From: an uncultured Atribacterota bacterium
Lineage (GTDB): Bacteria > Atribacterota > Phoenicimicrobiia > Phoenicimicrobiales > Stramentimicrobiaceae
Reading direction: 5' to 3'
DNA: 64,000 nucleotides
Assembly: GCA_964428905.1 (NCBI GenBank)
Contig: CAYSAA010000035.1
Location: 281-64,280, forward strand
This document shows positions 2,701 through 27,299 of this stretch, piece after piece (position 1 is the first letter of the stretch; each line of letters begins with the position of its first letter). Both the position numbers and the translations under genes were made by a program. The notes beneath the pieces were generated by a model. The model saw nothing but the letters and a program-made list of their open reading frames with translations. It did no database searches and had not been told where the DNA came from.

Positions 2701-2705
2701 AAATG

Positions 2706-5353: not shown

Positions 5354-5363
5354 AATATCTTCC

Positions 5364-5399
5364 TTTTAAAACAAAATGGAGGGTCGTTAAAGGCCCTCC
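5364..5399 (-). terminator. GC-rich stem-loop plus U-run directly after the SBP gene (intra-operon attenuator / mRNA stabiliser)
   Basis: Minus-strand RNA reads GGAGGGCCUUUAACGACCCUCC followed by AUUUUGUUUU. It sits in the 65-nt gap between the SBP and ATPase genes. Confidence 0.45.
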
Positions 5400-5418
5400 A
5401 AATCAATTTAATTTTGCT

Positions 5419-6417: not shown

Positions 6418-6569
6418 AATTAATATCTCCTTTTAAATTTTTTTAGTTTGGATAACACAAATTTATATTCTTTTTTTCACCTCCCATTCTCTTTATTTAT
6501 CAAATTGCACCAATGCTTACCATACAATTTAACATTTTATCAGTTCATCAAATTACCAAAGATCTTCCA

Positions 6570-7391: not shown

Positions 7392-8390
7392 TCAAATGTG
7401 CCTACTTTCTTCCTTGAAAGCTTTTACTATTTTTTCCGGGGTTATGGGCAAGGAATAAATTCTTACTCTTATGGCATCATAGACTGCATTGGCAATAGCC
7501 GGGGCAGTGGCAATCGTAGCCGGTTCTCCAATCCCTTTGGCTCCAAAAGGACCCCCTGAATCTTCATTCTCTATCAGCCGCGTAACAAAATGAGGACTAT
7601 CCATAGAAGTAGGAATTAAATAGCCGGTCAAATCAGGATTCAAAGTAATTCCTTCCTTTATAACCTGTTCTTCCATAAGAGCCATCCCGATTCCCTGGAG
7701 AGTACCTCCTTCTATCTGACCTTCTACATTTTTAGGATTTATAGCCTTTCCTATATCGACAGCAGTATAAACATTTAATACTTTCACAATTCCGGTGTCT
7801 GTATCAACTTCTACCTCAACCACCTGAGTAACAAAAGTATATGCCACATACACCTTTTTGCCCTGTCCAGTTTTGGGGTCGGGGGCATCGGTTTGAGGAA
7901 AGAAAGATGCTTCTGCTTTCAAACTTTCTCCTCTTGTTTTCACCCTTTCTGCTAATTCCCAATAACTTAATTTATCATCTGGATTTCCATATTGGAAAAT
8001 ATGGCCCCCTTCTACCCTTAATTCAGGATAACCGCTTCTAAATTCTAAACTGGCATAATGATAAATTTTAGCTAATACCTCTTCAGCCGCCCTTTTAACT
8101 GCATTTCCGGTAAAATAAGTCTGACGAGTCGCTGAAGAAGAACCTGCATTTTTGGTAAGATTGGTATCGGCTGGAATGATTTCTATGGCTTCCGGACTTA
8201 CTCTTAACACTTCTGCCACAATCTGGGTAATTACAGTTAAGACACCTTGGCCAACATCAGCTGCAGCACTTCTAACCAAAATCTTCCTATCCTTTTCAAT
8301 TTCTACTGAAGCAATAGAATGATCAGGGAATCCTTCTCCATAACCAAAACCAAACATAATGGTAGCCATTCCTTTGCCATGTTTCTTCAT
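7392..8390 (-). CDS. Mo-hydroxylase (xanthine dehydrogenase family), C-terminal half of the molybdopterin subunit (NdhM-like)
   Basis: 332 aa from the ATG at 8390; the track ORF begins at an upstream TTG. Homologous to the C-terminal 330 aa of the intact paralog at 21183-23486. Ends with the AKGIGEP catalytic-Glu motif. The ATG overlaps the upstream stop (ATGA), and GGAGGAGGG lies 6 nt upstream. Confidence 0.85.
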   Translation of the reverse strand: MKKHGKGMATIMFGFGYGEGFPDHSIASVEIEKDRKILVRSAAADVGQGVLTVITQIVAEVLRVSPEAIEIIPADTNLTKNAGSSSATRQTYFTGNAVKRAAEEVLAKIYHYASLEFRSGYPELRVEGGHIFQYGNPDDKLSYWELAERVKTRGESLKAEASFFPQTDAPDPKTGQGKKVYVAYTFVTQVVEVEVDTDTGIVKVLNVYTAVDIGKAINPKNVEGQIEGGTLQGIGMALMEEQVIKEGITLNPDLTGYLIPTSMDSPHFVTRLIENEDSGGPFGAKGIGEPATIATAPAIANAVYDAIRVRIYSLPITPEKIVKAFKEESRHI

Positions 8391-9658
8391 ATGGTTCCCT
8401 CCTCCCAACCAGCCATGTTTATCGCTTCTCTAATGGTTTCTTTTACCCCTACACTATGGGTTAATATCTGTTTATTGGGTGTGGAAGAACCAATATCATA
8501 AGCATTTTGCCAACGAAATTGAGCCGGATTAATCCCTAATTTGCAAGCCAGAATATCCATCTGAGACTCATAGGCAAAAGCCATCTGAGTTGTACCAAAA
8601 CCACGCATTGCCCCTGCATAGGTGTTATTAGTGTAAACAGTATAGGCTACTCCTTTGACATGATCAACATTATAAGGTCCGGTGCAGTGATACATACCTT
8701 TGTGCACTACTGCCGGACCGCTGGAAGCATATGCTCCAGTATCACCGATTACTTCAACCTGCCAGGCAGTTAAATAGCCCTTTTTGGTTGCACCAGTCTT
8801 TGCCCGAATAATAAATGCATGTCGCTTAGATTGAGCAATCATTGATTCTTCCCGGGTATAAGTCAGTTTCACTGGCCTTTTAGTCATCATTGCCGCTAAA
8901 GCCAGGTGAATATGGACAGAGATATCTTCTTTTCTTCCAAAAGCACCCCCAATAGCTGGTTGAATAATCATTACCTTTTCTTTAGGAATACCTAAAGACT
9001 GAGCTATATCAGCTTGAGTGTCATGAAGCCATTGAGAAGCTACCCAGAGTTTTATAACCTCATTCTTTGGGTCAAAAAATCCGACTCCTGCTTCCACTTG
9101 GAGAGGAATATGGTCTAAAAAACTTGTTCTATATTCATTTTCTACAATTACTTCTGCTTCTGCAAAACCCTTTTTTATATCACCCTTTTTTAAATAATGA
9201 GTAATTAAAATATTGCCATCTTCATGAATATAGGGAGCACCTTTGGTCATTGACCGCAAGGGATCAGATATTACTTCTAATTTTTCTACTTCAACTTCAA
9301 TTAACTTAGCTGCTTTAGAAGCAATTTCCTTGCTTTCTGCTATAACTATAGCCAGGGCATCTCCCATATAACGTATTTTTTCGCCAATAGCAATAAGAAC
9401 TGGTTGGTCCTTTATAATCAAACCAAAATTCTTCACGGTAGGAATGTCAGCTGCAGTAATGACCTTAACTACTCCCGGTAATTTTTGTGCTTTACTTATA
9501 TCAATCTTTCGTAGGTAGGCATGAGGATAAGTAGCTCTTTTGATTTTAAGATACAACATATCGTCAAAATAGATATCGTCAGGATATATGGCTTGACCGA
9601 TTACTTTATCCCGGGCATCTACTTTATAAACATTTCTACCTACATATCTTTCAGTCAT
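8387..9658 (-). CDS. Mo-hydroxylase, N-terminal half of the molybdopterin subunit (NdhL-like)
   Basis: About 423 aa from the ATG at 9658 (AAGGAG 8 nt upstream; the track start at 9679 is also possible). Has the a/b-hammerhead region plus GGAFGRKE and AMRGFG motifs. Collinear with residues 1-430 of the 767-aa paralog. Confidence 0.85.
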   Translation of the reverse strand: MTERYVGRNVYKVDARDKVIGQAIYPDDIYFDDMLYLKIKRATYPHAYLRKIDISKAQKLPGVVKVITAADIPTVKNFGLIIKDQPVLIAIGEKIRYMGDALAIVIAESKEIASKAAKLIEVEVEKLEVISDPLRSMTKGAPYIHEDGNILITHYLKKGDIKKGFAEAEVIVENEYRTSFLDHIPLQVEAGVGFFDPKNEVIKLWVASQWLHDTQADIAQSLGIPKEKVMIIQPAIGGAFGRKEDISVHIHLALAAMMTKRPVKLTYTREESMIAQSKRHAFIIRAKTGATKKGYLTAWQVEVIGDTGAYASSGPAVVHKGMYHCTGPYNVDHVKGVAYTVYTNNTYAGAMRGFGTTQMAFAYESQMDILACKLGINPAQFRWQNAYDIGSSTPNKQILTHSVGVKETIREAINMAGWEEGTI

Positions 9659-10157
9659 TTTTTTTGCTCCTTCCGCCACCCTTTTCCCTTAATCTGCTGG
9701 CAGATAATTCAATGGCATCAAATATTTTTTGATAGCCAGTACAGCGACACAGGTTGCCGGAGATACCTCGCTTAATATCCTCCTCACTGGGATATAAATT
9801 CTCTTCTAACAGTCTTTTGGCAGCTAAAATCATGCCCGGGGTACAAAATCCACATTGAACTGCCCCAGTCTCTATAAAAGCCTCTTGGATAGGATTGAGA
9901 TGCTTACTACTACCTATGCCTTCGATCGTAGTAATAACTGCTCCCTCAGCTTGGGGTGCCAACACCAAACAGGAGGCTACCAGCTCTCCGTTCATTATCA
10001 CAGTGCAAGCCCCACACTCACCCTTCCCGCATCCCTCTTTAGTTCCTGTTAGATGTAAGTCATCCCTTAAAAGATCCAACAAGCGGGTATGAGAAGTTGT
10101 TTCAATCTTTCTTTTCTTACCATTAACGGTTAATTCAATTACTAATTTTTCCACCAT
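9651..10157 (-). CDS. Mo-hydroxylase small subunit, 2x[2Fe-2S]
   Basis: 168 aa. Motifs GCGKGECGACTV and CGFCTPG...CRCTGY are diagnostic of XDH/CODH small subunits. Confidence 0.92.
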   Translation of the reverse strand: MVEKLVIELTVNGKKRKIETTSHTRLLDLLRDDLHLTGTKEGCGKGECGACTVIMNGELVASCLVLAPQAEGAVITTIEGIGSSKHLNPIQEAFIETGAVQCGFCTPGMILAAKRLLEENLYPSEEDIKRGISGNLCRCTGYQKIFDAIELSASRLREKGGGRSKKND

Positions 10158-11043
10158 AGTACCTCCGTAGGGCTAAATCTATCTCTTCTAAGGCATTTAT
10201 CATTATCTCTTTCGCAACATCTTTGCGATACTCTCTGGTCCCCCTGATATCATCGATAGGGGCAATTTTATCCTCAACTATCTGACCTAATTGGTCAAAA
10301 TCTAATTGATTAAACTGTTTTCCTGCCATCTTTGTTCCAATTTCTTTAATTTCAATAGGAGTAGGCGCTACAGAGCCCAGGCAAGTTCTTACCTCCTTAA
10401 TGGTTTTATTATCTGCAGCCATTTTCACTATCAGGGCTAAGGTAATGGTAGCAATGGCCAAAGCCCTTCTCTTACCAATTTTTATCCAGCTGCCATAAGT
10501 ATTTTCACCGGGCAAAGGAAGGATTACCTGGGTTAATAATTGATCCGGTTTTAGGATAGTTTTTTTAGGTCCGATAAAAAATTCTTCTGCGAGAACTAAA
10601 ACTTCTCCTTGCTGAGAGAGCAATCTAAATTGAGCATTGTAAGCTATTAAAGGAGGAAGGAAATCACCTGCTGGAGAGGCATTAACAATATTACCTCCCA
10701 TAGTACCTCGGTTTCTTATCTGGGGAGAACCAATATCCGCTGCAGCCAGGTTTAAGACCGGAAAGTACTTTTTGATATCTTCAGATTTTTCTAATTGAGC
10801 ATGAGTAACCATCGCCCCAATTATCATCTTATCTTCAACTATTTTTACTTCTTTCAATTCTTGAATTAATCGTAAATCTAACCACCCGCTCACTTCATAT
10901 AGTCGATCATAATATTGTACTAAAAGGTCAGTCCCTCCCGCAATCACCTTTAGCTCATTTTGATAACGGGACAAAATCTCCAGTGCCTCCTTTAATTCCC
11001 GAGGTGCAAAATACTGCTGATTCGGTAAGGTTCTCTGTCGCAT
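10135..11043 (-). CDS. Mo-hydroxylase FAD-binding subunit (CoxM/XdhB/NdhF-like)
   Basis: 302 aa. AGGTDL and NRGTMGGNIVNASPAGD motifs of the FAD_binding_5/CO_deh_flav_C family. Confidence 0.92.
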   Translation of the reverse strand: MRQRTLPNQQYFAPRELKEALEILSRYQNELKVIAGGTDLLVQYYDRLYEVSGWLDLRLIQELKEVKIVEDKMIIGAMVTHAQLEKSEDIKKYFPVLNLAAADIGSPQIRNRGTMGGNIVNASPAGDFLPPLIAYNAQFRLLSQQGEVLVLAEEFFIGPKKTILKPDQLLTQVILPLPGENTYGSWIKIGKRRALAIATITLALIVKMAADNKTIKEVRTCLGSVAPTPIEIKEIGTKMAGKQFNQLDFDQLGQIVEDKIAPIDDIRGTREYRKDVAKEIMINALEEIDLALRRYYGGKISN

Positions 11044-11227: not shown

Positions 11228-14200
11228 TTACATGTTAATTAAATAATGATAATCTTTTAAGATGGTGTTTATTACCGTGAAAATCTTGTTAAGTTCCTTA
11301 AAATCACCATTGTTATTGCTTGGATATTTAAAATTTGCGGGTATGATTAATTCATTGTTTTTATTAATTTTCAACTTCCATAAATCATCTTTTACCCTTA
11401 AGGTTATTAACTTATCATCAGACGAACCTGTAATAACAAAACCAGTATTGGTACTGTTTCTAAAGTCTTCTATGGTGCTAAAAAAGGTTAGCTTATCTCG
11501 GTAGGGTTTCCCATCATAGGGACAGAAGGTAGCGCAGTTTCCACATTCATTGCATAACGCATCGAGATGAAGAATCTGGTAAATATCCTTAAAATCTTCT
11601 TTTTTATCCACTTTAATTGCTACATTTGCCCGATTAGGACAGACATCTACACATTTATTACAGATCGTATTGCACTCGAGACACCGCTCTGCTTCCGTCT
11701 CAGCTATTACCCTATCATCTTCGGATATTGGTACAGAAATGAGGCGCCCTTTTTTATAATAGATTTCCTGTATTTGTTTCTTTTGATCAAAATCTAAGTC
11801 AATGTTTTTATCCAAACCTTTCCAATTCGGTATTTCCTTTTTAGCGATAGCCTCTGCTGCCTTTCTCGCATCGGCAATAGCTTCAACTACTGTTGAGGGA
11901 CCTCGCAGGATATCACCGCCAATAAAAACATTTGTAAGGTTAGTCTCTAGTGTTTCTGTGTTTACATATAGTCTGTTATTTTTTTCAACCTTTAATCCGC
12001 AGGTTGTTAAAAAGGTAGAGTCTGCATGTTCACCAATAGCACCAATAACAGCATCTACAGCCATCTCTGTGGTCTCCTCAGTAGGAGCAGGACTCCTGCG
12101 ACCACTTTTGTCAGGAGCACCTAAAGACATCTTGCGACATTTTAGAACCCCCTCTTTGGAAAATGCTTCCGGCAACAAGAGGGGCTTAAAAACAACCCCC
12201 TCTGCAAGGGCTCGCTTATACTCTTCTTGGTCTGCAGGCATTTCCTCTTCAGTACGGCGATAGATGATAAAAACCTCTTCAACACCCTTTACCCTCAGTG
12301 CGGAACGGGCACTATCTACGGCAGTATTTCCGCCCCCTATTACCGCAATCCGTCGACCAATGTTCAGAGACCTTTCTTCCTTATGGAATGACCTTAAAAA
12401 ATCCAGGGCTTCATAAACATGATGATTATCTCCAGTCAGCTGCAGCTTTTGTGAAGCTTCTGCCCCAATTCCTATAAAAATATATTTATATCCCTCATTT
12501 TTTAAATGACGAACAGAGAATTCATCTGATATACCATATTTGAAATCTACCCCCATTGCTTCAATATTAGCAATATCTTTTTGAATGGCAGATATTGGGA
12601 TTCTGAAATTAGGCAGTATATGGGCTACGACACCTCCGGGGGAATCTTGTTTCTCAAATATAGTTACCTTAAATCCTGCTTTAGATAGAAAATAAGCTGC
12701 AGATAGCCCTGCCGGTCCTGCTCCGATAACCGCAACTTTGGTATTTAACTGCTTGGCAATACTGAGACTTTTACTATGTTGGACATATCTCCCATGCTCA
12801 GCAGCAATCCTCTTGATCTCACGAATATTGACTGCCCCTTCATAATCAAGTCGGCTGCAATTATACATACATTGATGAGCGCAAATATATCCAGTTATAT
12901 TAGGAAGAGGATTTTTCAAATAGATAAGTTCCAAAGCCTTATCGTACTGCCCATCTCCCACCAGTCGAATATACTCCGGAATATCTTGAAGGATTGGACA
13001 GGAGAGAATACAGGGAGCAATGTAGCAGTCGGTTAAGGGTAATTTTCGATCAATGAAAACCTTCTTCGTTCCCCTCCAATCTTTTTGGTAATAATTATCT
13101 TGCAGGGATTTTTCGGCTAATTGTTCAAGCTTCTTGACATCAATCATATTGGTTTGACTCTTCTCTTCCATAATTGGCTCTAATTTTCGAGCCATTTCTG
13201 CCATTCTCAGGTAACCGCCCGGTTTCAAAAGTTCAGTAGCCACGGTAATGGGCTTAATTCCTGTCTCAAAAATCCGGAGAATATTTAACTGAGATGCCCC
13301 TCCTGAATAAGAGATCGGGAGAGTCCCTGCAAATTGCCGTGCTAAGCGGGAAGCCAGAGTAATGGTAATGGGAAAGAGAATACGTCCGGACAGATACATT
13401 TCTTCTCCCGGAAGAATGCCCAAGGTATTTACCGTTCCCAGGGTATTGGAAAGTTTAATACCAAAATAACGATTGCATTCAGCAGCTAATTTAGAAAGCC
13501 GTTCAATCATCCCTATTGCATCATCCCACTGCAGGTCCTTAGTAAATGTCGATTCTTTGAGAGTTACATAGTTGAAACCAAGGGCATCCAGTATTTTTCT
13601 AACTTGTTTATACCCCAGGAGGGTCGGGTTCAACTTTACATAGGTATTAAGCTTTTTTTTCTCCATCAGATATCTGCTTATCGCCTCTATCTCCTGGGGA
13701 GGGCATCCATGCATGGTAGAAAGAGTGACCGATCGGGTAATATAAGGTGAAATCATACTGGAAATATTCTCAAGTCCTTGGACCTGTCCTTTAATACCCA
13801 TAGCTTCTGAAAGGTCCAATCCCCGGATAAAAGAAAGCAATTCTTCCAGATGACGCTTAAATACCAAGTTTTTTGAGGCATCAGCTAAATGGTTAATGAA
13901 GGAATTCATTTTTGGCGTTTTGATACCCTTCAGGTCGTAGCCAACACTCATATTAAAAATAAAAGAGTGCTCCGGAGAAACACATCTATTAAAAATAGAC
14001 TCTATCAGGTAAAGCAGAATCCATGCTTTGAGATACTCGTCAAAGGCCTGTTCCAGAGAAAGTTCGGTAGACCATTCAGTATTATAACCCTCGTCTAGCG
14101 CGTCAATACAGGGTTTATCAAATTGCAGACTGTCAAGTTTCTGCACCGTTTTAAGCTCAAAAAACCGGCCCCCCACTAAATAGGCGGTAACAATATTTTG

Positions 14201-14398
14201 AGCTAATTGGGTATGAGGTCCTGCTGCCGGTCCCAAAGGAAGGCCACAGTTTTCATTAAATATCTGAATATGATTCGGATTTTCTTGAACAAAAAATTGG
14301 GATTCCGGTATCCCAAAAATGGTATGTTGGGAACGATATTCTTCAATTATCCATCGGAGCAACTGCTTAAACGGAACTGGTCGCATAACATCGCCCAT
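11228..14398 (-). CDS. ygfK: YgfK-type multidomain Fe-S flavoprotein ('putative selenate reductase subunit YgfK')
   Basis: 1056 aa (E. coli YgfK is about 1030 aa). The N-terminus MGDVMRPVPFKQLLRWIIEEYRSQHTIFGIPESQFF matches the YgfK N-terminus as I recall it. Has a TIM-barrel-like N-terminal third, two Rossmann motifs (VAVIGAGPAGLSAA, IAVIGGGNTAVDSA) and C-terminal CxxCxxCxxxCP ferredoxin motifs. Confidence 0.9.
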   Translation of the reverse strand: MGDVMRPVPFKQLLRWIIEEYRSQHTIFGIPESQFFVQENPNHIQIFNENCGLPLGPAAGPHTQLAQNIVTAYLVGGRFFELKTVQKLDSLQFDKPCIDALDEGYNTEWSTELSLEQAFDEYLKAWILLYLIESIFNRCVSPEHSFIFNMSVGYDLKGIKTPKMNSFINHLADASKNLVFKRHLEELLSFIRGLDLSEAMGIKGQVQGLENISSMISPYITRSVTLSTMHGCPPQEIEAISRYLMEKKKLNTYVKLNPTLLGYKQVRKILDALGFNYVTLKESTFTKDLQWDDAIGMIERLSKLAAECNRYFGIKLSNTLGTVNTLGILPGEEMYLSGRILFPITITLASRLARQFAGTLPISYSGGASQLNILRIFETGIKPITVATELLKPGGYLRMAEMARKLEPIMEEKSQTNMIDVKKLEQLAEKSLQDNYYQKDWRGTKKVFIDRKLPLTDCYIAPCILSCPILQDIPEYIRLVGDGQYDKALELIYLKNPLPNITGYICAHQCMYNCSRLDYEGAVNIREIKRIAAEHGRYVQHSKSLSIAKQLNTKVAVIGAGPAGLSAAYFLSKAGFKVTIFEKQDSPGGVVAHILPNFRIPISAIQKDIANIEAMGVDFKYGISDEFSVRHLKNEGYKYIFIGIGAEASQKLQLTGDNHHVYEALDFLRSFHKEERSLNIGRRIAVIGGGNTAVDSARSALRVKGVEEVFIIYRRTEEEMPADQEEYKRALAEGVVFKPLLLPEAFSKEGVLKCRKMSLGAPDKSGRRSPAPTEETTEMAVDAVIGAIGEHADSTFLTTCGLKVEKNNRLYVNTETLETNLTNVFIGGDILRGPSTVVEAIADARKAAEAIAKKEIPNWKGLDKNIDLDFDQKKQIQEIYYKKGRLISVPISEDDRVIAETEAERCLECNTICNKCVDVCPNRANVAIKVDKKEDFKDIYQILHLDALCNECGNCATFCPYDGKPYRDKLTFFSTIEDFRNSTNTGFVITGSSDDKLITLRVKDDLWKLKINKNNELIIPANFKYPSNNNGDFKELNKIFTVINTILKDYHYLINM

Positions 14399-14582
14399 AA
14401 TGATTCCCTCCTTGTAACATACATCGCATATCTTCTATTTTGCGATAAAATTGTAATTGGTAACGAACTTTTCTCTTTCACAGTTTAGCATAATTACTTA
14501 TCATTATAATAATCATAAGGAATAATAATAAATATTTTTCTTTTTCAATGGTTACTAATTTTACTCCCCGCCCTTGCACCTG

Positions 14583-14634
14583 TTTAAAAACAATTCCTTC
14601 TGAAATCATTCGAAGCACCAATTCAGGATTGTTC
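14583..14634 (-). terminator. Probable rho-independent terminator after the DUF364 gene
   Basis: Minus-strand RNA AACAAUCCUGAA...UUCAGAAGGAAUUGUU forms an imperfect hairpin followed by UUUUUA, 14-65 nt after the stop at 14648. Confidence 0.4.
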
Positions 14635-14647
14635 TTTCCTTTCTTTT

Positions 14648-15373
14648 TTAATGGCTGCAGAAACAATAATGATGATAATTCATGAGGTAGGCAATACCAC
14701 TAATGGTAACCCCATAAAAGATAATCGGCTTTTTACCTAATAGAGAAGTTAAGGTATTATTTACCGAGGTTGTGCCGGTAGCGATAATAATATCAGAGCT
14801 GGATATCATTTGCCGGGTATGGGACACATTCTCTATAAGAATGCCATTTTTTCTAAGACCTACATTGCCTTTATCTAAATCAACAACTCTGATTTTAAAA
14901 GTTGTCGATAGCGATTCGACTATTGCTGGTTGTAATCCAATAAAAGCTATACGCGGTTGCCCAAATTTTTCTTGCATATAATTTTTAAACTGGGTAGCAC
15001 ATTCTGCAGGCTCTTGGTCTCTACAATGAATGGTATTGGAAATATAGCCCAAATAGCGTAAAACAGCATTGATACTGGCAATAAAAACAGCCCTCTGAAA
15101 ATTATTAATAAGTGGAAGTTGAAAAACGTCTCTTAATGTTCCAGTAAAATTTCCGGGCATATCAGTAAATGCCTGTCCTAAACTTCCCCTGAAATCAGCT
15201 TGCATCATGACTTCCTTACCCTTTAATAAGGGAAAATCATCTCTTCCCGGATTTCCTATTACCTCTTGAGGAGTAAGAGGCCTCACATTCACCACATGAA
15301 AGGTAGATGACCAAATATTATTATCTGAAACCAACAGGTAAAATTTTTCCTTGATTTTCTGGTATAAATTCAC
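14648..15373 (-). CDS. DUF364/DUF4213-type protein ('putative heavy-metal chelation' Rossmann-like domain)
   Basis: 241 aa. IAFIG...VVDL...IIIATGTTSVNNTL resembles the DUF364 signature. The C-terminus is Cys/His-rich (NYHHYCFCSH). Family call is from memory of the Pfam signature. Confidence 0.6.
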   Translation of the reverse strand: MNLYQKIKEKFYLLVSDNNIWSSTFHVVNVRPLTPQEVIGNPGRDDFPLLKGKEVMMQADFRGSLGQAFTDMPGNFTGTLRDVFQLPLINNFQRAVFIASINAVLRYLGYISNTIHCRDQEPAECATQFKNYMQEKFGQPRIAFIGLQPAIVESLSTTFKIRVVDLDKGNVGLRKNGILIENVSHTRQMISSSDIIIATGTTSVNNTLTSLLGKKPIIFYGVTISGIAYLMNYHHYCFCSH

Positions 15374-15410
15374 AGCTGTATCCTTTCTTCTTGGTAGTTC
15401 CTTTTACATA

Positions 15411-16430
15411 TTATCGGCCAAAATAACAAAATGGATAATGACATTTAGAACAAGTAGCGCAAAATCCGCCTTCGCCCATTTTTATAAAGTCCTTTTTAGA
15501 CAGGATATCGCCTATGAATATTCTTGGTAAGACAATATCTAAAATCGTATTTTTATAAAATAAGGATGCACCAGGGATACCTATTAAGGTCGTCTCTCCT
15601 GAATAGGCCAACATAAACATATTGCCTGGTTGAACGGGGACACCATAGGTCACAATCTTTGCACCGCTTTCTTTAATGGCACCGGGTGTCAGGTCATCCG
15701 GATCTACTGACATTCCCCCGCTTAAGGCTATCAGGTCGACATTCAGTTGTCTAAAATAAGAGATGGCTGCTTTAATTTTTCCAATATCATCGGGGCATAA
15801 AATTTGTCCTTTAATCTCTGCTCCAAAATAAGCAAACTTCTTCCTTAATAAAGGACCAAATTCATCTTTAATCAACCCTTTAAACACTTCATTACCGGTA
15901 GTCACAATACCCACTCTTAGACTCTTATACTTTTTTACAGCAAAAACAGCCCCTTCTTCCTGACATAATACTTCTACTTTTTTGATCATTTCTTCTGGAA
16001 TAACGAGAGGAACAATGCGCACACCTGCTAAACTCTGATTTTCAATTACCCTGAAATGATTGGGAAGACAAGGAATGGTAACATTTTCTATAGAATTTAT
16101 TTGGTATAGAAGTTTGCTTTTAACTTCAAACAATCCTTTGGTTAACGATTTTAAGGTTATTTTCCCCTCAACAGGTTCATCAAATTTAATATTCTCTCCT
16201 GATATTGCTTGAGATATTCTCAGAGAGGCTTCATTCTCATGAATTTCCCCTTGCTTGGGCTGCCAGACATAAATGTATTCCTTGCCAATTTTCTTTAACT
16301 TTTCAATATCTTCCTGCCTGATAATATGATCTTTTCGAAAGGCAGGTCCTTTGAATTTTCCAGGTATAATTTGTGTAATGTCATGACATAACTTCGTACC
16401 AACTGCTTTAGCTACCGGTATCTTTTTCAT
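15411..16430 (-). CDS. Molybdopterin-binding protein (MoCF_biosynth / MoeA-like) with Cys-rich tail
   Basis: 339 aa. The central VGIVTTGNEV...LSGGMSVDPDD region is typical of MoaB/MogA/MoeA domain III. The C-terminus reads GGFCATCSKCHYPFCYFGR. Confidence 0.7.
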   Translation of the reverse strand: MKKIPVAKAVGTKLCHDITQIIPGKFKGPAFRKDHIIRQEDIEKLKKIGKEYIYVWQPKQGEIHENEASLRISQAISGENIKFDEPVEGKITLKSLTKGLFEVKSKLLYQINSIENVTIPCLPNHFRVIENQSLAGVRIVPLVIPEEMIKKVEVLCQEEGAVFAVKKYKSLRVGIVTTGNEVFKGLIKDEFGPLLRKKFAYFGAEIKGQILCPDDIGKIKAAISYFRQLNVDLIALSGGMSVDPDDLTPGAIKESGAKIVTYGVPVQPGNMFMLAYSGETTLIGIPGASLFYKNTILDIVLPRIFIGDILSKKDFIKMGEGGFCATCSKCHYPFCYFGR

Positions 16431-16505
16431 TCGAATTTCCTAACTGTAAAATTGGAATACATTTTTTTCCTCTCAGCCTTTTATTAAATTACAGGTACTC
16501 ATAGG

Positions 16506-17198
16506 TCATTCTCCAATCGAATTTTCTTTCCTTTCGAAATAAGTCCTGGCTTTTAAATAATCTTCATCTCTATCAATATCAAATAAAATTGAACGATCTG
16601 AGATATTTATTCTTTTCACCTTATCAGGATGTGCCTTTATTAGTACTCTGCCACCTACATCACCGGTTATATTCATTAACTCCTCTTTCCAATCAAGGTC
16701 AAAAAGAACCGGATTTCCCCGTTTATCTTGATAATAAGGAACAACTATCTCTTTTTTGCCTTTAGTAAAAGAGGTAATCAGTTGATTGATAATTTTGGCG
16801 TTAATCAAAGGCTGATCACCTAAAATCAGACAAAAGCCATCTACCTCTTTTCTCTGGGAATCCAATTGAAGTAGACCTTTTTGAATGGTTGTACTCATAC
16901 CTTTCTTAAAATCGGGGTTAAAAACAATTTCTGCCTTCCACCTTTTCCCTATCTCTGAAACCTCTTTATCATCCGGACGTATCACTAAGATCATTTTATC
17001 TAACAGAGAGGATAAAGCTGCTTCCAATACCCATTCAATGATTTTTTTGGAACCTAAGGAAAGATTTAATTTTGGCTTACCCATTCTAATCCCTTCCCCT
17101 GCAGCTAAAATAATACCTGCTATCTTTGTGTCCACTGAATTAAAATCGCTTCCAAAAGTCTTGTGCCTGTTCTTTTGTTTTAATAGCAATCCTTTCAT
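16506..17198 (-). CDS. mocA: Molybdenum cofactor cytidylyltransferase (MobA-like NTP transferase, MocA/PucB type)
   Basis: AGIILAAGEGIRMGKPKL and LGDQPLI motifs. The start is uncertain: the ATG at 17198 overlaps ssnA by 59 nt, while a GTG at 17135 lies 4 nt after the ssnA stop. Confidence 0.8.
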   Translation of the reverse strand: MKGLLLKQKNRHKTFGSDFNSVDTKIAGIILAAGEGIRMGKPKLNLSLGSKKIIEWVLEAALSSLLDKMILVIRPDDKEVSEIGKRWKAEIVFNPDFKKGMSTTIQKGLLQLDSQRKEVDGFCLILGDQPLINAKIINQLITSFTKGKKEIVVPYYQDKRGNPVLFDLDWKEELMNITGDVGGRVLIKAHPDKVKRINISDRSILFDIDRDEDYLKARTYFERKENSIGE

Positions 17199-18471
17199 AA
17201 TCTAATCCACATATATTTCGATCTTCCATTAATATTTTACCGCCTACAATAGTATAATCAACCATATCTCCGCTCAGCCCGAATAAAATATGAAAATAAA
17301 CATTATTACTGTTGATGGGAGTAGGCGGAAAGTAATTGACCACTAAAAAATCAGCAGGGGCTCCTGCCGCAAGGATTCCCAGAGGTTGATTAAAAAATTT
17401 ATGGGCAATCTCACGGTTATTTTTAAACGCCATCTGAAAAACTTCTTCTGAGCCAGCCTGAGGATGGTGCAGTTCATGTTTTTGTAATAGATTTGCCACT
17501 TTGATGCTTTCAAACATATCAGCAGTATATCCATCCGTCCCCAATCCTACCACAATACCTTTATCGAAAGAGGATTGAACCGGAGCCATACCTACTGCAT
17601 TACCCATATTAGATTCAGGATTATGAACTAAATAAACCTGATTATTTTTTAACATTTCCAATTCTTTTTCCTGAAGATGAACACCATGAATAGCTAAAGT
17701 CCCGGGACGTAAAATATGAAAATGCTGAAGACGATCTGCCACTCCTTTATAACCACGGGTCTTGCTTTCGTAAACATCAGCCATTCCCTCGGCCACATGG
17801 ATATGAAAAGGGATTTCTAATTCATCAGATAGAGAAGCTGCTTGGGATAAAGTTTCATTATTTAGCGTAAAAGAGGCGTGAAGTCCAATTAACCCTCTTA
17901 AATAGTTATTGCTTTCCTGTTGTGTCCTCTTTATAAATCGTTCATTTTCCCTGATCCCTGCCAAAGCCTTTTCCTGACCGTCACGGTCGGAAATTTCATA
18001 AGATAGATTAGCTCTAATACCTGTCTGATGTATCGCTTCAGCAATTACATCTAAACTTCCATCAATAAAATTACTACTGGCATGATGATCAAAGATGGTG
18101 GTCGTTCCCTTTTTTACACAATCTAAAAGAGCATACATTGCACTGTAATATATATCTTCTTTATTTAAAGTTCTATCTAATCTCCACCAGAGCTTTTCCA
18201 AAATTTCTACAAAATTTTTAGGTGGCACATCTGTTTTAAGATTCATTCCTCGTGCAAAAGTACTATAAAGATGCATATGAGTATTAATCATACCGGGCAT
18301 TATGATTCTGCCCTTAATATCTTTAAAGGTAGCTTCCGGGTATTTTATTCGCAATTCTTCCGTTTTTTCAACTGCCAAAATATCCACTCCGTCAATGGCC
18401 ACTCCACCATTAGGGATAACTCGAGTATCTTTATCAAGAGTAATCACAGTTCCATTTCCAATAATCAACAT
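17140..18471 (-). CDS. ssnA: SsnA-type putative aminohydrolase (amidohydrolase superfamily)
   Basis: 443 aa (E. coli SsnA is 442 aa). Collinear motifs include MPGMINTHMHLY, LWWRLDRTLNKEDIYYS, IFDHHAS, HIHVAEG and LGTDG. Confidence 0.88.
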   Translation of the reverse strand: MLIIGNGTVITLDKDTRVIPNGGVAIDGVDILAVEKTEELRIKYPEATFKDIKGRIIMPGMINTHMHLYSTFARGMNLKTDVPPKNFVEILEKLWWRLDRTLNKEDIYYSAMYALLDCVKKGTTTIFDHHASSNFIDGSLDVIAEAIHQTGIRANLSYEISDRDGQEKALAGIRENERFIKRTQQESNNYLRGLIGLHASFTLNNETLSQAASLSDELEIPFHIHVAEGMADVYESKTRGYKGVADRLQHFHILRPGTLAIHGVHLQEKELEMLKNNQVYLVHNPESNMGNAVGMAPVQSSFDKGIVVGLGTDGYTADMFESIKVANLLQKHELHHPQAGSEEVFQMAFKNNREIAHKFFNQPLGILAAGAPADFLVVNYFPPTPINSNNVYFHILFGLSGDMVDYTIVGGKILMEDRNICGLDYERIAIKTKEQAQDFWKRF

Positions 18472-19860: not shown

Positions 19861-20325
19861 TCAGTCTTTGGTTACACTCTCAATTGCTTCAATAATCTGT
19901 TCATAGCCGGTACAACGGCAGAGGTTACCCTCCAGGGCTGTTTTAATCTCTTCTCGACTGGGATGAGGGTTATGGGTAAGCAATGCTTTGGCAGACATCA
20001 GCATCCCCGGTGTACAAAAACCACATTGTATGGCATGATGATCAATAAAAGCCTGCTGTAAAGAATCAAGCTCACCCTGCACTTCCAATCCTTCAACCGT
20101 AAGCACTTCACTTCCCCCAATCTGCCCGGTAAGAATTAAACAGGAACAAACTGCCTTGCCGTCAAGGATAACTGTACAGGCTCCGCATTCTCCGATACTG
20201 CATCCTTCTTTGGTTCCAGTTAATTTTAATTGTTCCCTCAAAGTATCAATGAGTCGCTCCTTAGAACCTACTTTTAGGGTTACTTCTTTCCCATTTACCG
20301 TGAAAGTTACAGTGATCTTATGCAT
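19861..20325 (-). CDS. xdhC: Xanthine dehydrogenase-family small subunit, 2x[2Fe-2S] (XdhC of the E. coli xdhABC nomenclature)
   Basis: 154 aa. Motifs GCSIGECGACTV and CGFCTPG...CRCTGY. Confidence 0.9.
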   Translation of the reverse strand: MHKITVTFTVNGKEVTLKVGSKERLIDTLREQLKLTGTKEGCSIGECGACTVILDGKAVCSCLILTGQIGGSEVLTVEGLEVQGELDSLQQAFIDHHAIQCGFCTPGMLMSAKALLTHNPHPSREEIKTALEGNLCRCTGYEQIIEAIESVTKD

Positions 20326-21196
20326 TAATTTTTGCCTCCTGAATAATCTTTTCCAGCGCTCTCTTAATCAGAACAGCAATGGTCGGTTTCTTATAAGGAG
20401 TAGACCATCTCTCTCCAGTAATAGAGATCATTTCATTGCCGGTTATTTGACTAATTTCCTCTAAATCAATCGTATGCATCGATTTTCCATTAACCGCTTC
20501 TTCTGATTGAGGAAAGGATTGGGGATAAGGGGTAGCAGATCCGGGCACAATTCTCGTATCCCGGAATATCCCCTCTTCATCTATTTTTGCCACCAGGGCA
20601 ATACTTAGCCGTGCAATTGATAGTGCTTTTCTGCGACCAATTTTTTGAAAATCAGCATAATAATGTTCACCAAGCAAAGGAATTTTTATTTTGGTTAATA
20701 ATTCATATGCCTGTAATTTAGTTTGATAAGGACCGGTTAAAAATTCTTCTAAGGATAATACTCGTTTGCCTTTCTGGGAAGTTAATTCCACTTTGGCTTT
20801 TAAGGCAATTAAAGGTGGTAAAAGGTCTGCCGCAGGAGAAGCATTCACAATATTACCTCCCATAGTGCCCCTATTACGGATTTGTGTTGAGCCGATAGTT
20901 TGGGCTGCGTTGGCCAAAATAGGAAAATTATTATTTATGAGAGGTTCATGTATTAAGCTGGAATGGGTTATCAAAGAACCTATTTCTATAAAATGATGAA
21001 CTGCGGTAATAAAATTCAATTCTGAAATATTACTGATATCCAACAGGTAATCAAAGGGTGTTAAACGAGAGCTTCCTTTATGAAGATTGACCAACAAATC
21101 TGTTCCCCCGGCCAATATCTGAACCCTTTTTAATTTATCTAAATAATTTAAGGCCTCTTCGATTTTTGTGGTAGTCAAAAAATCATAAGTTTGCAT
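20318..21196 (-). CDS. xdhB: Xanthine dehydrogenase-family FAD-binding subunit
   Basis: 292 aa, the same length as E. coli XdhB. AGGTDL and NRGTMGGNIVNASPAAD motifs. Confidence 0.9.
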   Translation of the reverse strand: MQTYDFLTTTKIEEALNYLDKLKRVQILAGGTDLLVNLHKGSSRLTPFDYLLDISNISELNFITAVHHFIEIGSLITHSSLIHEPLINNNFPILANAAQTIGSTQIRNRGTMGGNIVNASPAADLLPPLIALKAKVELTSQKGKRVLSLEEFLTGPYQTKLQAYELLTKIKIPLLGEHYYADFQKIGRRKALSIARLSIALVAKIDEEGIFRDTRIVPGSATPYPQSFPQSEEAVNGKSMHTIDLEEISQITGNEMISITGERWSTPYKKPTIAVLIKRALEKIIQEAKINA

Positions 21197-23486
21197 TTCT
21201 TGGGGCTCCTTTACTTAAGGAATATCCCAGTAAAACCCTTTCCAGATTAAGGGGCAAATGTCTCATTCTATTTCCGGTAGCATTAGTCAGCGCATTAGCA
21301 ATGGCTGCTGCTGTTAATTCTAACGTGGGCTCACCAATAGATTTAGCTCCGTAAGGACCATTGGGGTCAGGATTTTCTACCACAATTGGTACTATTTCGG
21401 GCATATCTTTTATGGTTGGAATAAGATATTCATCAAAATTAGTATTTTTAATATAACCCTCTTCGGTTTCTATCTCTTCCATAATACCGTAACCCAAACC
21501 CATCATGACTCCGCCATAGATTTGCCCTTTTAGATAGGCAGGATTAATAGCCCTGCCTACATCATGAACGGCGGTAATCTTCAATACTTCTATCTGACCG
21601 GTCGCTATATCAACCTCAACTTCAGCCACCTGACAACCATAGACATAAGTAAAATATGGTCTGCCTTGGCCGGTTTCTTCATTCCAGGAAATATCGGGAG
21701 CTTTGTACCAGCCATAGGCAGATAAAAAGATTCCCTGTTTATTGGCTAAATCAACTACTTCATTAAAAGAAACTATTCTTTTATTTTTCTCATATATACT
21801 TTCATTTTTAAAAATCAAGTTACCCTTTTTGACCTTACATTCAACTGCTATGATATCAGCCAGGGTTTCTTTTATTTGATTAGCCGCTTTCTTCACTGCT
21901 TGACCACCTAACAAAGTACTGCGGGAAGCAACAGTAGAACCACTATCGGGAGAGACTGAAGTATCAATCTCCATATAACTAATCCTCTTAATTTCTACCC
22001 CCAGTTCCTCTGCTGCTATCTGGCTAAAGACAGTTTTTAAACCCTGACCATTTTCAGCCAACCCACAGGAGATTAAGATACTACCATCACGCTGAATGGC
22101 AACTATGGCTCCGGCAGCATCCGTTGCCTCAGCCCCCAGACTACAACCCCGAAAACTGACGGCCATGCCGATACCTCTTTTTTTATCTTCTTTTTTACCT
22201 TTACTATATTTTATGTATTTCTCTTGATAATGACTTGCTGTAATAGCCTTAGTTATTACCTCTTCCAGACTCACCTGGTGATTATCTAATTTCTGTCCAC
22301 TGGCCGTAATGGAATCATTGTGATAGATATTTTTTAAACGTAAATCCACCGGACTTATCCTTAATTGTTCAGCCAATTCATCCAGCAATGATTCCTGAGC
22401 AAAGATAACCTGTGGTGAGCCATAACCTCTCATTGCCCCGGTATATACATTGTTGGTATAGTAGCCATAAGTATCAGTCTGCACATGGGGTATTTCATAA
22501 GGACCTGTGGCCTGTACCACTGAGCGCCAGGTAACAAATGGAGTCTGGCAGGCATAAGCCCCACTATCGGCAACACATTTAATCTCCATTGCCACCAATT
22601 TGCCTTCTCTAGTAGCACCTACTTTATATTTCATCTTATAGGGATGACGTTTATAGCTTTCGAGAATTGATTCTTCTCGAGTATTTATCATTTTAATCGG
22701 TCGATTCGTTTTTAAAGATAAGAGGGCTGCGCGGGCAGCCATAGAAGACATAACTTCGTCTTTTCCACCGAATGACCCTCCCATATGATTTTGAATGATT
22801 CTCACCTGATTTAAATCGACTCTAAGTACGGAAGCCACTGCATTTCGACAGGCGAAAGGATTTTGTATCGAACCGTAAATAGTTACCAAATTGTTTTGCT
22901 CATAGGGCACTGCTACGACTACCTCAGTTTCAATATAACTGTGTTCCACAAATTGGGTAGTGTATTCTCTTTCCAAAATGACCTCAGCCTGAGCAAAACC
23001 TTTTTTTGCATCTCCCTTTCTTAGAAGATGATGAACTACTTGATTAGTAAGTGTTTCAGGTTGAATTAACAGGGCTTCTTTGGTTGCTGATTCATCCGGA
23101 TCAAAAATTCCGGATAATTCTTCATATTCTACCTCAATCAACTCTAAAGCTTCTGTAGCCGCTTCTTTAGTCTCAGCAGCAACAACAGCAATACCATCGC
23201 CTATATACAAAACTCGCTCCTTAGCTAAAACCTGTTGGTTTGGTATAATGACTCCAAATTCATTATTGGGAACATCTTGGGCAGTTAGTACAGCCTTAAC
23301 TTTTGGATAGGCTAAAGCTCTATCAATATTTATCTTTAAAATTCGAGCATGGGGATATTTACTGCGTAAAACTTTACCATAGAGCATATCAGGAAAGAAA
23401 AGATCAGCACCAAATTTTGCCCTTCCGGTAACTTTTTCATAGGCATCAACCCGTCTTATTGGTTTATTAACTTTACTATAAACCAT
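21183..23486 (-). CDS. xdhA: Xanthine dehydrogenase-family molybdopterin-binding large subunit (intact, single chain)
   Basis: 767 aa. Motifs GGSFGGKDE, AMRGYGSPQ and AKSIGEP (catalytic Glu). The Mo-FAD-FeS gene order and the sizes 767/292/154 mirror E. coli xdhABC. Confidence 0.9.
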   Translation of the reverse strand: MVYSKVNKPIRRVDAYEKVTGRAKFGADLFFPDMLYGKVLRSKYPHARILKINIDRALAYPKVKAVLTAQDVPNNEFGVIIPNQQVLAKERVLYIGDGIAVVAAETKEAATEALELIEVEYEELSGIFDPDESATKEALLIQPETLTNQVVHHLLRKGDAKKGFAQAEVILEREYTTQFVEHSYIETEVVVAVPYEQNNLVTIYGSIQNPFACRNAVASVLRVDLNQVRIIQNHMGGSFGGKDEVMSSMAARAALLSLKTNRPIKMINTREESILESYKRHPYKMKYKVGATREGKLVAMEIKCVADSGAYACQTPFVTWRSVVQATGPYEIPHVQTDTYGYYTNNVYTGAMRGYGSPQVIFAQESLLDELAEQLRISPVDLRLKNIYHNDSITASGQKLDNHQVSLEEVITKAITASHYQEKYIKYSKGKKEDKKRGIGMAVSFRGCSLGAEATDAAGAIVAIQRDGSILISCGLAENGQGLKTVFSQIAAEELGVEIKRISYMEIDTSVSPDSGSTVASRSTLLGGQAVKKAANQIKETLADIIAVECKVKKGNLIFKNESIYEKNKRIVSFNEVVDLANKQGIFLSAYGWYKAPDISWNEETGQGRPYFTYVYGCQVAEVEVDIATGQIEVLKITAVHDVGRAINPAYLKGQIYGGVMMGLGYGIMEEIETEEGYIKNTNFDEYLIPTIKDMPEIVPIVVENPDPNGPYGAKSIGEPTLELTAAAIANALTNATGNRMRHLPLNLERVLLGYSLSKGAPRNANL

Positions 23487-23662: not shown

Positions 23663-24616
23663 TTATTTATCTTCTATGGAAAAAGAGGTACCCAAAGCTG
23701 ATGGTGATGAAAAGCTGGTCTTCTTTTTTTTGCTTAAAAATGTCATGATCACCAGAACGATCACTGTTATCAAATAAGGAGCCATATTAAGAAATGATGC
23801 CGGTATGACCGTCCCTGCAGCTTGAAGTCTGTATTGTACAGCATTAATTCCCCCAAATAGAATTGCCCCAAATACCGCTCTTGCTGGATTCCAGCCCGAG
23901 AAAATGACCAGAGCAATAACAATCCATCCGCGTCCTCCGGTAATATTTTCAGACCACCCGGGAGTATAGGCAAGAGAAAGGTGAGCACCTCCCAATCCCA
24001 CCAGCATACCTCCAAAAACGGTATAACTATATCGTATTTTCATGACACTGATACCCATGGCAGCAGCAGTACGAGGATTTTCGCCTACGGATCGTAAGGA
24101 TAGGCCATTCTTCGTTCTATACAAATAAAACCAGGCTAAGGGAACAATAATATATAACAGATAGGTGAGAACATCCTGCTGAAGAAATGCTGAAAGCACC
24201 GGGATTTCTTCCAGAAAAGGTATGTGAATAATAGGAAATTTCTCCCCGGTAAGACCAGTAAGATTATAACTATTCTCCGCCGGTCCGAGACGCTGACCAA
24301 GAAAACTGGCAAAACCGGTACCAAAGATGGTCAGGCTTAACCCGCTGACAACTTGATTAGCCCGCATGGATACCGAAAGAAACGCATGAAGTAAAGCCAT
24401 AGCACCGCCAACCAACATGGCTGCTGCTACTCCAAGCAGGAGATTCCTAGTACTATAAACAACACTGAAAGCAGTAACTGCCCCCATCATCATCATCCCT
24501 TCCACACCAAGATTCAGAATACCTGATCTTTCGGTGTAGATCTCACCGATAGTAGCATAGAGCAGTGATGTTCCTGCCCTTATGGTTACCAGCAATAATG
24601 TGGTTATTAACAGCAT
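23663..24616 (-). CDS. ABC transporter permease (importer 2, second permease)
   Basis: 317 aa, polytopic. Paralog of 1774-2700. Confidence 0.85.
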   Translation of the reverse strand: MLLITTLLLVTIRAGTSLLYATIGEIYTERSGILNLGVEGMMMMGAVTAFSVVYSTRNLLLGVAAAMLVGGAMALLHAFLSVSMRANQVVSGLSLTIFGTGFASFLGQRLGPAENSYNLTGLTGEKFPIIHIPFLEEIPVLSAFLQQDVLTYLLYIIVPLAWFYLYRTKNGLSLRSVGENPRTAAAMGISVMKIRYSYTVFGGMLVGLGGAHLSLAYTPGWSENITGGRGWIVIALVIFSGWNPARAVFGAILFGGINAVQYRLQAAGTVIPASFLNMAPYLITVIVLVIMTFLSKKKKTSFSSPSALGTSFSIEDK

Positions 24617-24617
24617 C

Positions 24618-27211: not shown

Positions 27212-27251
27212 GTATTGTTTTCTCTTTCGAATATCCGGTTGGATAAAGAAG

Positions 27252-27282: not shown

Positions 27283-27299
27283 GTCGGCTAGGTCATTTT

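Follow-up and report, generated by a model that had tools for sequence, protein, structure and literature searches.

The subject of this work is a group of three consecutive genes in a 64,000-nucleotide (nt) stretch of DNA from an uncultured Atribacterota bacterium (contig CAYSAA010000035.1 of assembly GCA_964428905.1), which we call the window. The genes code for a MocA-type cytidylyltransferase, for a MoeA-like protein of 339 amino acids (aa) that ends in a four-cysteine (Cys4) motif, and for a 241-aa DUF364-like protein with a Cys3-His site. We found that this arrangement is a reduced variant of a conserved gene cluster, and that the absence of YqeC, YqeB and XdhC at this place results from three lineage-specific deletions. 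It is probable that the trio is the surviving core of the conserved Atribacterota cluster, serving here the early steps of molybdenum cofactor (Moco) maturation, and that loading of sulfur or selenium (S/Se) and insertion of the cofactor are provided from elsewhere.

The deletions became apparent from comparison with L088, the closest distinct relative, whose SsnA, MocA, 339-aa and 241-aa proteins share 78-83% aa identity with those of the window. The gene order in L088 is amidohydrolase, SsnA, YqeC, MocA, YqeB, XdhC, a ModE-like helix-turn-helix (HTH) protein, the 339-aa protein, a 240-aa protein and a canonical DUF364 protein (263 aa). Nucleotide alignment showed that the window equals this locus minus three cleanly excised segments (Table 1). 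At the first junction blastn aligned positions 798-2667 of L088 with 19000-17131 of the window, and positions 3696-4306 with 17131-16521. The last ~45 nt of the spacer at the second junction are homologous to the old intergenic region between the HTH gene and the 339-aa gene. Of the second, canonical DUF364 gene a remnant is left, in which the first 8 codons are joined in frame to the last ~33; in the sister contigs L089, L090 and L093 an open reading frame (ORF) of 43 codons is called at 14478-14609. The window arrangement is no artefact: five independent assemblies, which stem from several samples, show it.

Purifying selection acts on the retained genes, the ratio of nonsynonymous to synonymous substitution rates (dN/dS) being 0.20 for mocA, 0.12 for the 339-aa gene and 0.11 for the 241-aa gene, with 0.14 for the neighbouring ssnA. 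These values bear on the idea that the trio is a decaying leftover without present function, which could appeal to the loss of three neighbouring genes or blocks and to the loss of the ancestral ATG of mocA, which now reads AAG. We regard decay as very improbable: the ORFs are intact and have kept all residues that are invariant in their families, dN/dS is on a par with that of ssnA, the arrangement is stable in the five assemblies, and a GTG located 4 nt past the ssnA stop can substitute for the lost start codon. This GTG (17135), which would yield a MocA of 209 aa, is the likely start; the longest mocA ORF begins with an ATG at 17198 inside ssnA, which gives 230 aa and an overlap of 59 nt with ssnA.

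The DUF364-like family has homologs in at least 527 species genomes, and 80 loci were analysed for gene company. In Atribacterota there is a fixed order of XDH (xanthine dehydrogenase) genes, YqeC, MocA, YqeB, XdhC, a ModE-type HTH protein, the 339-aa protein, the 241-aa protein and an ABC transporter. Among the evaluable Atribacterota loci the DUF364-like gene has a 339-like gene immediately upstream in 21 of 21, YqeC/YqeB/XdhC lie upstream of this pair in 14 of 15, and a transporter follows directly downstream of the DUF364-like gene in 17 of 17. The YqeC (TIGR03172, 169 bits) and YqeB (TIGR03309, 349 bits) of the relatives score above the NCBIfam cutoffs, the XdhC-family protein (NF045664, 291 bits, cutoff 350) and the ModE repressor domain (61.5 bits, cutoff 98.5) below them. 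The conserved Atribacterota cluster can be written as yqeC-mocA-yqeB-xdhC-(ModE-type HTH)-(MoeA-like Cys4)-(Cys3-His DUF364-like)-(ABC transporter or second DUF364).

Since the same proteins sit beside YqeC-MocA-YqeB-XdhC in the relatives, the pair accompanies these factors and does not replace them. A preliminary description of this DNA, made from the sequence alone, had proposed that the trio is a non-canonical module with no XdhC, YqeB or YqeC, in which the pair may act as a previously uncharacterised unit of Moco handling and insertion. What can be kept of this proposal is that the two genes form a conserved adjacent pair, and that they belong to uncharacterised families tied to molybdenum (Mo) cofactor biology. 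The insertion role that would make the three factors superfluous is not supported, and the claim of a replacement system specific to the window is probably wrong.

The pair is also linked in a metagenome-assembled genome (MAG) of Dehalococcoidales, in a Syntrophaceae MAG and in the metagenome contig L179. Genes for 339-like proteins are found in the YqeC-MocA-YqeB/XdhC clusters of Formimonas, Thermosediminibacter and the metagenome contig L180, with XDH genes nearby in the first two; in Thermosediminibacter the gene comes directly after those of a ModE-type HTH protein, ModA and ModB. A 268-aa ORF of Thermosediminibacter (L003), which was considered as a DUF364-like candidate, was rejected, its N-terminal GAGDxASG motif matching the YqeB (TIGR03309) domain confirmed in L005.

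Outside Atribacterota the survey covered Moorellaceae, Peptococcaceae, Syntrophorhabdus, Desulfobacteria, Nitrospirota, Dehalococcoidia and Armatimonadota, among others. In these phyla a transporter stands directly downstream of the DUF364-like gene in 31 of 48 loci, and usually comprises a ModA that scores above the TIGR01256 cutoff, a permease of the ModB type and a WtpC/ModC-like ATPase. A 339-like gene directly upstream was found in none of 47 loci, and an XDH Mo subunit gene at a distance of at most 10 kb in three of 54. The preliminary description had suggested a check of co-occurrence between DUF364 and XDH-family genes; outside Atribacterota this link turned out to be scant, the main partner being an ABC transporter of the Mo/W (molybdenum/tungsten) type. 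The Atribacterota transporter next to the pair has an SsuA-like substrate-binding protein (SBP) and a WtpC-like ATPase. In L005 (10818-13635) an SsuA/NMT1-type SBP, a TauC/SaoP-like permease and a WtpC/ModC-like ATPase are found under a ModE-type HTH protein and beside the pair, and the same transporter is present in L008-L033, L036, L053, L064, L081, L082 and L179. It may represent an undescribed type of importer for Mo/W or another oxyanion.

In the window itself, we compared the minus-strand ORFs of 120 aa or more, and one long ORF on the plus strand, with NCBIfam or Pfam. Among the ORFs scanned in the 64 kb there was no family match to XdhC (PF02625/PF13478), YqeB (TIGR03309) or YqeC (TIGR03172), and there were no selD, mod or moa genes. 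Searching the window by tblastn with the YqeC, YqeB and XdhC sequences of close relatives (three XdhC probes) gave nothing at E <= 1; in the same search the relatives' MocA, 339-aa and 241-aa proteins matched the window at 58-73% identity. The lack of XdhC, YqeB and YqeC in the 64 kb, on which the preliminary description was built, is thus real. XdhC_CoxI and XdhC_C domains are likewise absent from the 339-aa and 241-aa proteins.

The same sample series also contain a canonical locus. Among the best-scoring relatives of the L088 YqeB are P0242 and P0367; their contigs, L174, L175 and L178, are 99% identical to each other and come from the JGI samples Ga0643561 and Ga0643563 and from 'ML8', whereas contigs of the window type come from the sibling samples Ga0643562, Ga0643564 and 'MLSed'. 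Window-type contigs are present in the metagenomes JGI 3300077522, 3300077564 and 3300001533, and in SRR2989655 and SRR2986055. L178 carries, in this order, XDH genes, YqeC, MocA, YqeB, XdhC, an HTH protein and the start of the 339-aa gene. The 5' end of this gene is 96.7% identical to that of the window in aa sequence and ~94% identical in nt sequence over 309 nt, more so inside the coding part. The likeness ends ~35 nt upstream of the 339 ATG, and the mocA genes are only 71% (aa) and 77% (nt) identical. L174 and L178 end 240-330 nt into the 339-aa gene, within the long identical stretch, a pattern typical of assemblies that break at a repeat. These data are most simply read as showing a second complete locus, which belongs to the same genome or to a very close strain living alongside, and whose 339-aa gene was homogenised with the copy of the window. 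That it belongs to the same genome as the window is, in our estimate, rather probable. P0366 and P0361 are possible copies of the 241-aa and 339-aa proteins, respectively, from such a second locus. The preliminary description had named a canonical set elsewhere, sufficient on its own, as speaking against its proposal, and a co-occurring canonical locus with a near-identical 339-aa gene comes close to that.

It is possible to argue, on the contrary, that the lineage has dispensed with XdhC, YqeB and YqeC, and that the pair together with MocA delivers Mo, S or Se and inserts the cofactor for both hydroxylases encoded near the trio. The deletions removed precisely yqeC, yqeB and xdhC and left the trio intact and under purifying selection; both hydroxylase gene sets are intact, one of them being closest to nicotinate dehydrogenase (3HRD), which we take to contain selenium; there is no canonical factor in the 64 kb, and the link of L178 to the same genome is putative. 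We nevertheless consider this explanation unlikely. The pair coexists with YqeC/YqeB/XdhC in all but one of the evaluable Atribacterota loci, as well as in the other YqeC-MocA-YqeB/XdhC clusters examined, and beyond this phylum the DUF364-like family has few links to hydroxylases. Moreover, the canonical locus, with its ~97%-identical 339-aa gene, turns up in the two sample series alike and is interrupted within the shared segment, and 64 kb cover little of a genome. In the strictest version YqeB, YqeC and XdhC would be truly lost, both hydroxylases would be matured by MocA and the pair alone, and the thiolate-rich sites would hand over a Mo centre that is already sulfurated or selenated; the DUF364-like protein could in that case be an enzyme using an Fe-S cluster and S-adenosylmethionine (SAM). 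We consider this version improbable.

The second gene of the trio had been described as coding for a 339-aa protein of the molybdopterin-binding (MoaB/MoeA domain III-like) type, and the ORF, the Pfam match (Table 1) and the C-terminus, GGFCATCSKCHYPFCYFGR, all agree with this. The protein consists of an N-domain (aa 1-168, no Pfam match), a MoeA-type MoCF domain (aa ~170-305) and the Cys4 C-terminus. Its AlphaFold2 (AF2) model has an overall pLDDT (predicted local distance difference test) of 87.7. The best Foldseek matches of the model are MoeA, Cnx1E and gephyrin-E (E ~1e-9, 320-390 columns), and the MoCF domain superposes on MogA/MoaB/Cnx1G with TMt values of 0.57-0.71. The family profile aligns with residues 172-304 (domain III) of P. 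horikoshii MoeA, including the MoeA-specific hG..QPG segment after GGxS, and the offset of the alignment fits with MoeA domains I and II ahead of the MoCF domain. The single-domain MogA/MoaB type (~160-190 aa) is ruled out by the length of 339 aa and by the additional 170-aa N-domain.

There are, however, clear differences from MoeA. MoeA_N (PF03453) gave no Pfam match even at E <= 10, although Foldseek aligns 320-390 columns with MoeA and Cnx1E, and Pfam searches of the N-domain and of the Cys tail at the same threshold yielded nothing useful. MoeA domain IV (PF03454, MoeA_C) was not matched either, and the sequence stops ~35 residues past the MoCF domain. The loop at the position of the MoeA KPGKP motif, whose lysines we take to be K275/K279 of the E. 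coli protein, reads Q267-P-G-N-M271, the lysines thus being replaced; P268, G269 and M271 do not vary in the family, and 45 of 52 homologs have Q267 and N270. Because it has no domain IV, no detectable MoeA_N and no KPGKP lysines, the 339-aa protein is, as far as sequence and model tell, MoeA-like but not a MoeA.

The tail pattern GG(F/L)C-x2-C-x2-C-x-(Y/F)P-x-C is present in all 56 close homologs and in 50 of 52 homologs down to 37% identity. By this degree of conservation the Cys4 tail is a hallmark of the family, and chance is excluded. The AF2 model is weak over the tail (mean pLDDT 45-50 at residues 321-339 and <50 at 330-339), as would be expected of a metal-dependent element. An exhaustive search (E <= 1e-30) found ~319 clusters of the family at 50% identity, which split into a class of ~340 aa with the Cys4 tail and a class of ~320-328 aa without it. 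In fusion proteins the partners are FmdE with a treble-clef zinc finger, a ModE-type HTH protein, MobB and MoaC. The FmdE fusions mostly do not have the Cys4 tail, which hints that tail and zinc finger may be interchangeable in function. Given its neighbours and its fusion partners, of which FmdE, MobB and MoaC are general Moco proteins, the 339 family is a general factor for Mo/W-pterin cofactors with no specificity for XDH. In L179 the genes for the 339-like protein, the DUF364-like protein and the ABC transporter lie between canonical MoeA and MoaA/MOSC. The block from MoeA to MoaA is flanked there by genes for a CGGC-domain protein (2510-2842) and a short MOSC-domain protein (10181-10594), two more candidates for a part in the handling of sulfur or metal. 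In the literature we found no MoeA-like or MoCF protein described for the selenium-cofactor trait; a paper on C. difficile mentions a 'molybdopterin cofactor biosynthesis protein' after yqeC-mocA, a possible member of the 339 family.

The third protein, which ends with NYHHYCFCSH, had been assigned to the DUF364 type, and this assignment is upheld by the match to PF04016 and by a full-length DUF364 fold. Its AF2 model (pLDDT 83.5) gave Foldseek matches to the two-domain DUF364 structures 3NPG (E 1.7e-9, 243 columns, TM 0.55) and 3L5O (E 3.4e-6). This was achieved by the fold search alone, the sequence having no match in the PDB. DUF4213 (PF13938, enolase-N-like) was not matched in aa 1-130 at E <= 10, and with the canonical DUF364 paralog of L088 there is a weak local match. 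H116, C117, C125 and C237 are invariant in 74 of 74 sequences from many phyla, and H241 and C239 are conserved in 91% and 74%, respectively. The conserved unit of the family is therefore a Cys3-His site, which connects the linker between the two domains with the very end of the chain. Of the Cys/His-rich tails that had been ascribed to both proteins, that of the 339-aa protein is genuine, whereas the unit of the DUF364-like protein is not truly a tail, H116, C117 and C125 being located in the linker. A Cys3-His DUF364-like gene stands in tandem with a canonical DUF4213+DUF364 gene in L088 (7569-9070) and L177 (356-1449), and the two subfamilies, occurring side by side, presumably have different roles. 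L029 and L031, two contigs of one Atribacterota MAG (CSMAG_624), each have a DUF364-like gene, hence two copies per genome occur in Atribacterota.

A link between DUF364 and molybdate transporters is already in the literature: the DUF364 structure paper noted adjacency to molybdate uptake genes (PMC2954201), and in M. maripaludis fitness data a DUF364 gene embedded in modABC is cofit with nif. One DUF364 enzyme has been characterised, the SAM-cyclising azetidine synthase Orf5, which converts methyl-SAM to methyl-azetidine carboxylate (PMC12930334). By analogy, the 241-aa protein could be a SAM-dependent enzyme that makes a small molecule, such as an azetidine- or nicotianamine-like Mo/W ligand or a modified pterin; the Cys3-His site would then hold structural Zn or an Fe-S cluster, and the protein would not be a chaperone. 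Besides the use of methyl-SAM by Orf5, the full-length DUF364 fold with its Rossmann-like domain, the invariant G146-x-Q-P loop and the acidic D165, both typical of nucleotide/SAM binders, and the proposal of the structure paper that DUF364 proteins synthesise a pterin, flavin or siderophore-like chelator (PMC2954201) argue for such a role. The likeness to canonical DUF364 proteins is, however, marginal (27.9 bits with PF04016, no PDB sequence match, a weak match to the L088 paralog), and neither an exporter nor further biosynthetic genes are found alongside. We think that a SAM-dependent role is a serious rival of the chaperone function, if on present evidence a rather unlikely one.

A specificity of the pair for tungsten, or a function in Mo/W discrimination unrelated to the XDH molybdenum cofactor, was also considered. 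The best match of the linked ATPases is the tungstate-type WtpC, the fusion partner FmdE is known from the operons of formylmethanofuran dehydrogenase, of which there are Mo and W forms, and W enzymes are plentiful in hosts such as Moorella, Syntrophorhabdus and Desulfobacteria. On the other hand, in Atribacterota, Firmicutes and L180 the 339-like gene is found among MocA, YqeB, YqeC and XDH genes, which belong to Mo systems using the molybdopterin cytosine dinucleotide. The SBPs match ModA (TIGR01256) above the cutoff, and the WtpC scores are below theirs. All in all, tungsten specificity appears improbable.

We favour the explanation that the trio is what the deletions left of the conserved cluster, with mocA and the 339-aa and 241-aa genes joined between ssnA and ygfK. 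The DUF364-like protein would act where the cell takes up Mo/W oxyanions, and would handle or condition the metal that is imported, by means of its Cys3-His site or in a SAM-dependent reaction. The MoeA-like protein would bind molybdopterin with its MoCF domain and load or hold the metal, the Cys4 tail possibly substituting for the absent MoeA domain IV. MocA would then add CMP (cytidine monophosphate) to give the cytosine-dinucleotide cofactor of XDH-family enzymes. The late steps, provision of the terminal S/Se ligand and insertion of the cofactor, would be performed not by the pair but by XdhC, YqeB and YqeC, most probably encoded at the second canonical locus of the same organism.

It must be noted that several points weigh against this explanation. 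The place of the L178 locus in the same genome is putative, and the functions of the 339 and DUF364-like families are predicted from sequence, fold and gene context. A MoeA-like insertase mechanism is not assured, given the change of the KPGKP lysines to QPGNM and the lack of domain IV, and the canonical MoeA beside the pair in L179 implies that the 339-like protein is not simply the insertase. The SAM cyclisation carried out by the characterised DUF364 enzyme (PMC12930334) points to small-molecule chemistry and not to metal chaperoning. Structural binding of Zn is another possible role of the Cys motifs. Finally, in the window the pair has no adjacent transporter.

For the first protein of the trio TIGR03310 (MocA/YgfJ) was by a wide margin the best NCBIfam model (E 1.3e-51, 175.3 bits), the score being just under the cutoff of 186.45, and the match to PF12804 (110 bits) indicated the MobA-like NTP transferase fold. 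The surroundings of the gene (ssnA, ygfK and two hydroxylases) are those of an XDH-family or selenium-dependent molybdenum hydroxylase (SDMH) system, in keeping with the cytidylyltransferase assignment of the preliminary description. The same description had placed the trio at the end of an xdhABC operon, which is not correct: its neighbours are ssnA and ygfK, in an array of genes that all run in one direction, with one hydroxylase gene set on either side. The array, all on the minus strand, consists of the XDH-type hydroxylase (three subunits), an 8-oxoguanine-deaminase-like amidohydrolase, SsnA, the trio, YgfK and hydroxylase 2, and further holds a PuuR-like regulator, two BMP-type ABC transporters, adenine deaminase and allantoinase. 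The presence of ssnA marks a purine-degradation operon of the 2,8-dioxopurine-pathway type (bioRxiv 10.1101/2025.04.24.650524). Positions of the features are listed in Table 1.

Table 1. Features of the window and related proteins discussed in the text
Feature	Position	Strand	Basis or remarks
Module: mocA, 339-aa gene, 241-aa gene	14648-17198	minus	three consecutive ORFs
mocA	16506..17135 (longest ORF to 17198)	minus	TIGR03310, PF12804
339-aa gene	15411..16430	minus	PF00994 at aa 174-304, 77.7 bits
Cys4 tail, E320-G-G-F-C324-x2-C327-x2-C330-x-Y-P-x-C335	15414..15473	minus	homolog conservation
241-aa gene	14648..15373	minus	PF04016 (DUF364) 27.9 bits, cutoff 23, aa 137-223 only
Junction 1	17131..17142	minus	ssnA stop (17140-17142), then mocA; yqeC and upstream spacer gone (~1.0 kb in L088)
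Junction 2	16431..16505	minus	75-nt spacer between mocA and 339-aa gene; yqeB, xdhC and ModE-type HTH gone (~2.1 kb in L088)
Remnant of second canonical DUF364 gene (DUF364b)	14532..14660 (region from 14478)	minus	tblastn and blastn with DUF364b gene of L088
ssnA (upstream neighbour)	17140..18471	minus	NF005540 600.8 bits, TIGR03314 565 bits
ygfK (downstream neighbour)	11228..14398	minus	TIGR03315 1424 bits
Hydroxylase 1: Mo subunit (767 aa), FAD and 2Fe-2S subunits	19861..23486	minus	NCBIfam pucD/XdhA, XdhB, XdhC-FeS type
Hydroxylase 2: FAD, 2Fe-2S, split Mo subunit	7392..11043	minus	nicotinate-dehydrogenase type
339-like fusion proteins			P0392, P0418, P0435, P0455, P0471, P0475, P0376, P0405, P0397

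The Mo subunit of hydroxylase 2 is made of an L part of 430 aa (8387-9679) and an M part of 332 aa (7392-8390), the genes overlapping in ATGA. Since the L/M split recurs in L089, it is not due to a frameshift error. In the PDB the L part matched nicotinate dehydrogenase of E. barkeri (3HRD_A, 1.4e-99, 337 bits), the next match scoring 181 bits. Two complete BMP-family ABC transporters are encoded, together with other purine genes, at 331-7124 and 23663-30456 (minus strand), and they match 'putative B6 ABC transporter' models weakly. The rest of the window contains housekeeping genes (IleRS, DivIVA, PhoU, a Liv transporter, the dcw cluster), and the closest named homologs of the window proteins are from Atribacterota. 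A scan of the 14.2-24 kb region for promoters and terminators gave counts at chance level, thus no signal either way on internal transcription units.

These results identify two large uncharacterised families as regular members of Mo/W cofactor gene clusters in anaerobes, and neither family figures in current models of Moco biosynthesis or of the maturation of selenium-dependent hydroxylases. The Cys3-His DUF364 subfamily is mostly the first gene of modABC-type operons. The deletion variant divides the cluster into a retained block (mocA and the 339-aa and 241-aa genes) and a dispensable or relocated block (yqeC, yqeB, xdhC), which suggests that cofactor synthesis on the one hand and S/Se loading with insertion on the other are divided between the two blocks, a proposal that can be tested. 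Selenium-dependent hydroxylases are of medical interest because gut bacteria remove urate with them. The broader lead, which is worth experiments, is that of two families with Cys motifs in the Mo/W cofactor supply of anaerobes.

The gene set can be compared with several known systems. The accessory set described for SDMH enzymes comprises YqeB (TIGR03309), YqeC (TIGR03172) and YgfJ/MocA (TIGR03310), together with SsnA, YgfK and XDH-family genes (Haft & Self 2008, PMC2276186). The window shares with it ssnA, ygfK, mocA and the XDH-family hydroxylases, and the relatives add YqeB and YqeC in the cluster; it differs by the absence of YqeB, YqeC and XdhC (YqeB and YqeC are present in the relatives and in L178) and by two extra genes that are outside the described set. 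The 339-aa and 241-aa proteins share with the XdhC/PaoD chaperones a presumed accessory role for XDH-family enzymes and, in the relatives, a place in the same clusters, but they have no sequence or fold kinship with these chaperones, and XdhC is a separate gene in the relatives. With MoeA, Cnx1E and gephyrin-E the 339-aa protein has in common a MoCF domain of the MoeA type (GGxS..D, hG..QPG) preceded by ~170 residues; it differs from them by the lack of domain IV and of a Pfam MoeA_N match, by the QPGNM loop, by the additional Cys4 motif and by its coexistence with MoeA in L179. The 241-aa protein resembles the known DUF364 proteins (3L5O, 3NPG, the M. maripaludis modABC protein and Orf5) in its two-domain fold and in the association with molybdate/tungstate ABC transporters, yet it is very divergent from PF04016/PF13938, has no DUF4213 match and possesses its own H-C...C...C(-x-C-x-H) site. 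Hydroxylase 2, finally, has the FAD, FeS, L, M order and the split Mo subunit of the E. barkeri nicotinate dehydrogenase NdhF-S-L-M (3HRD), but it is encoded in a purine-degradation context.

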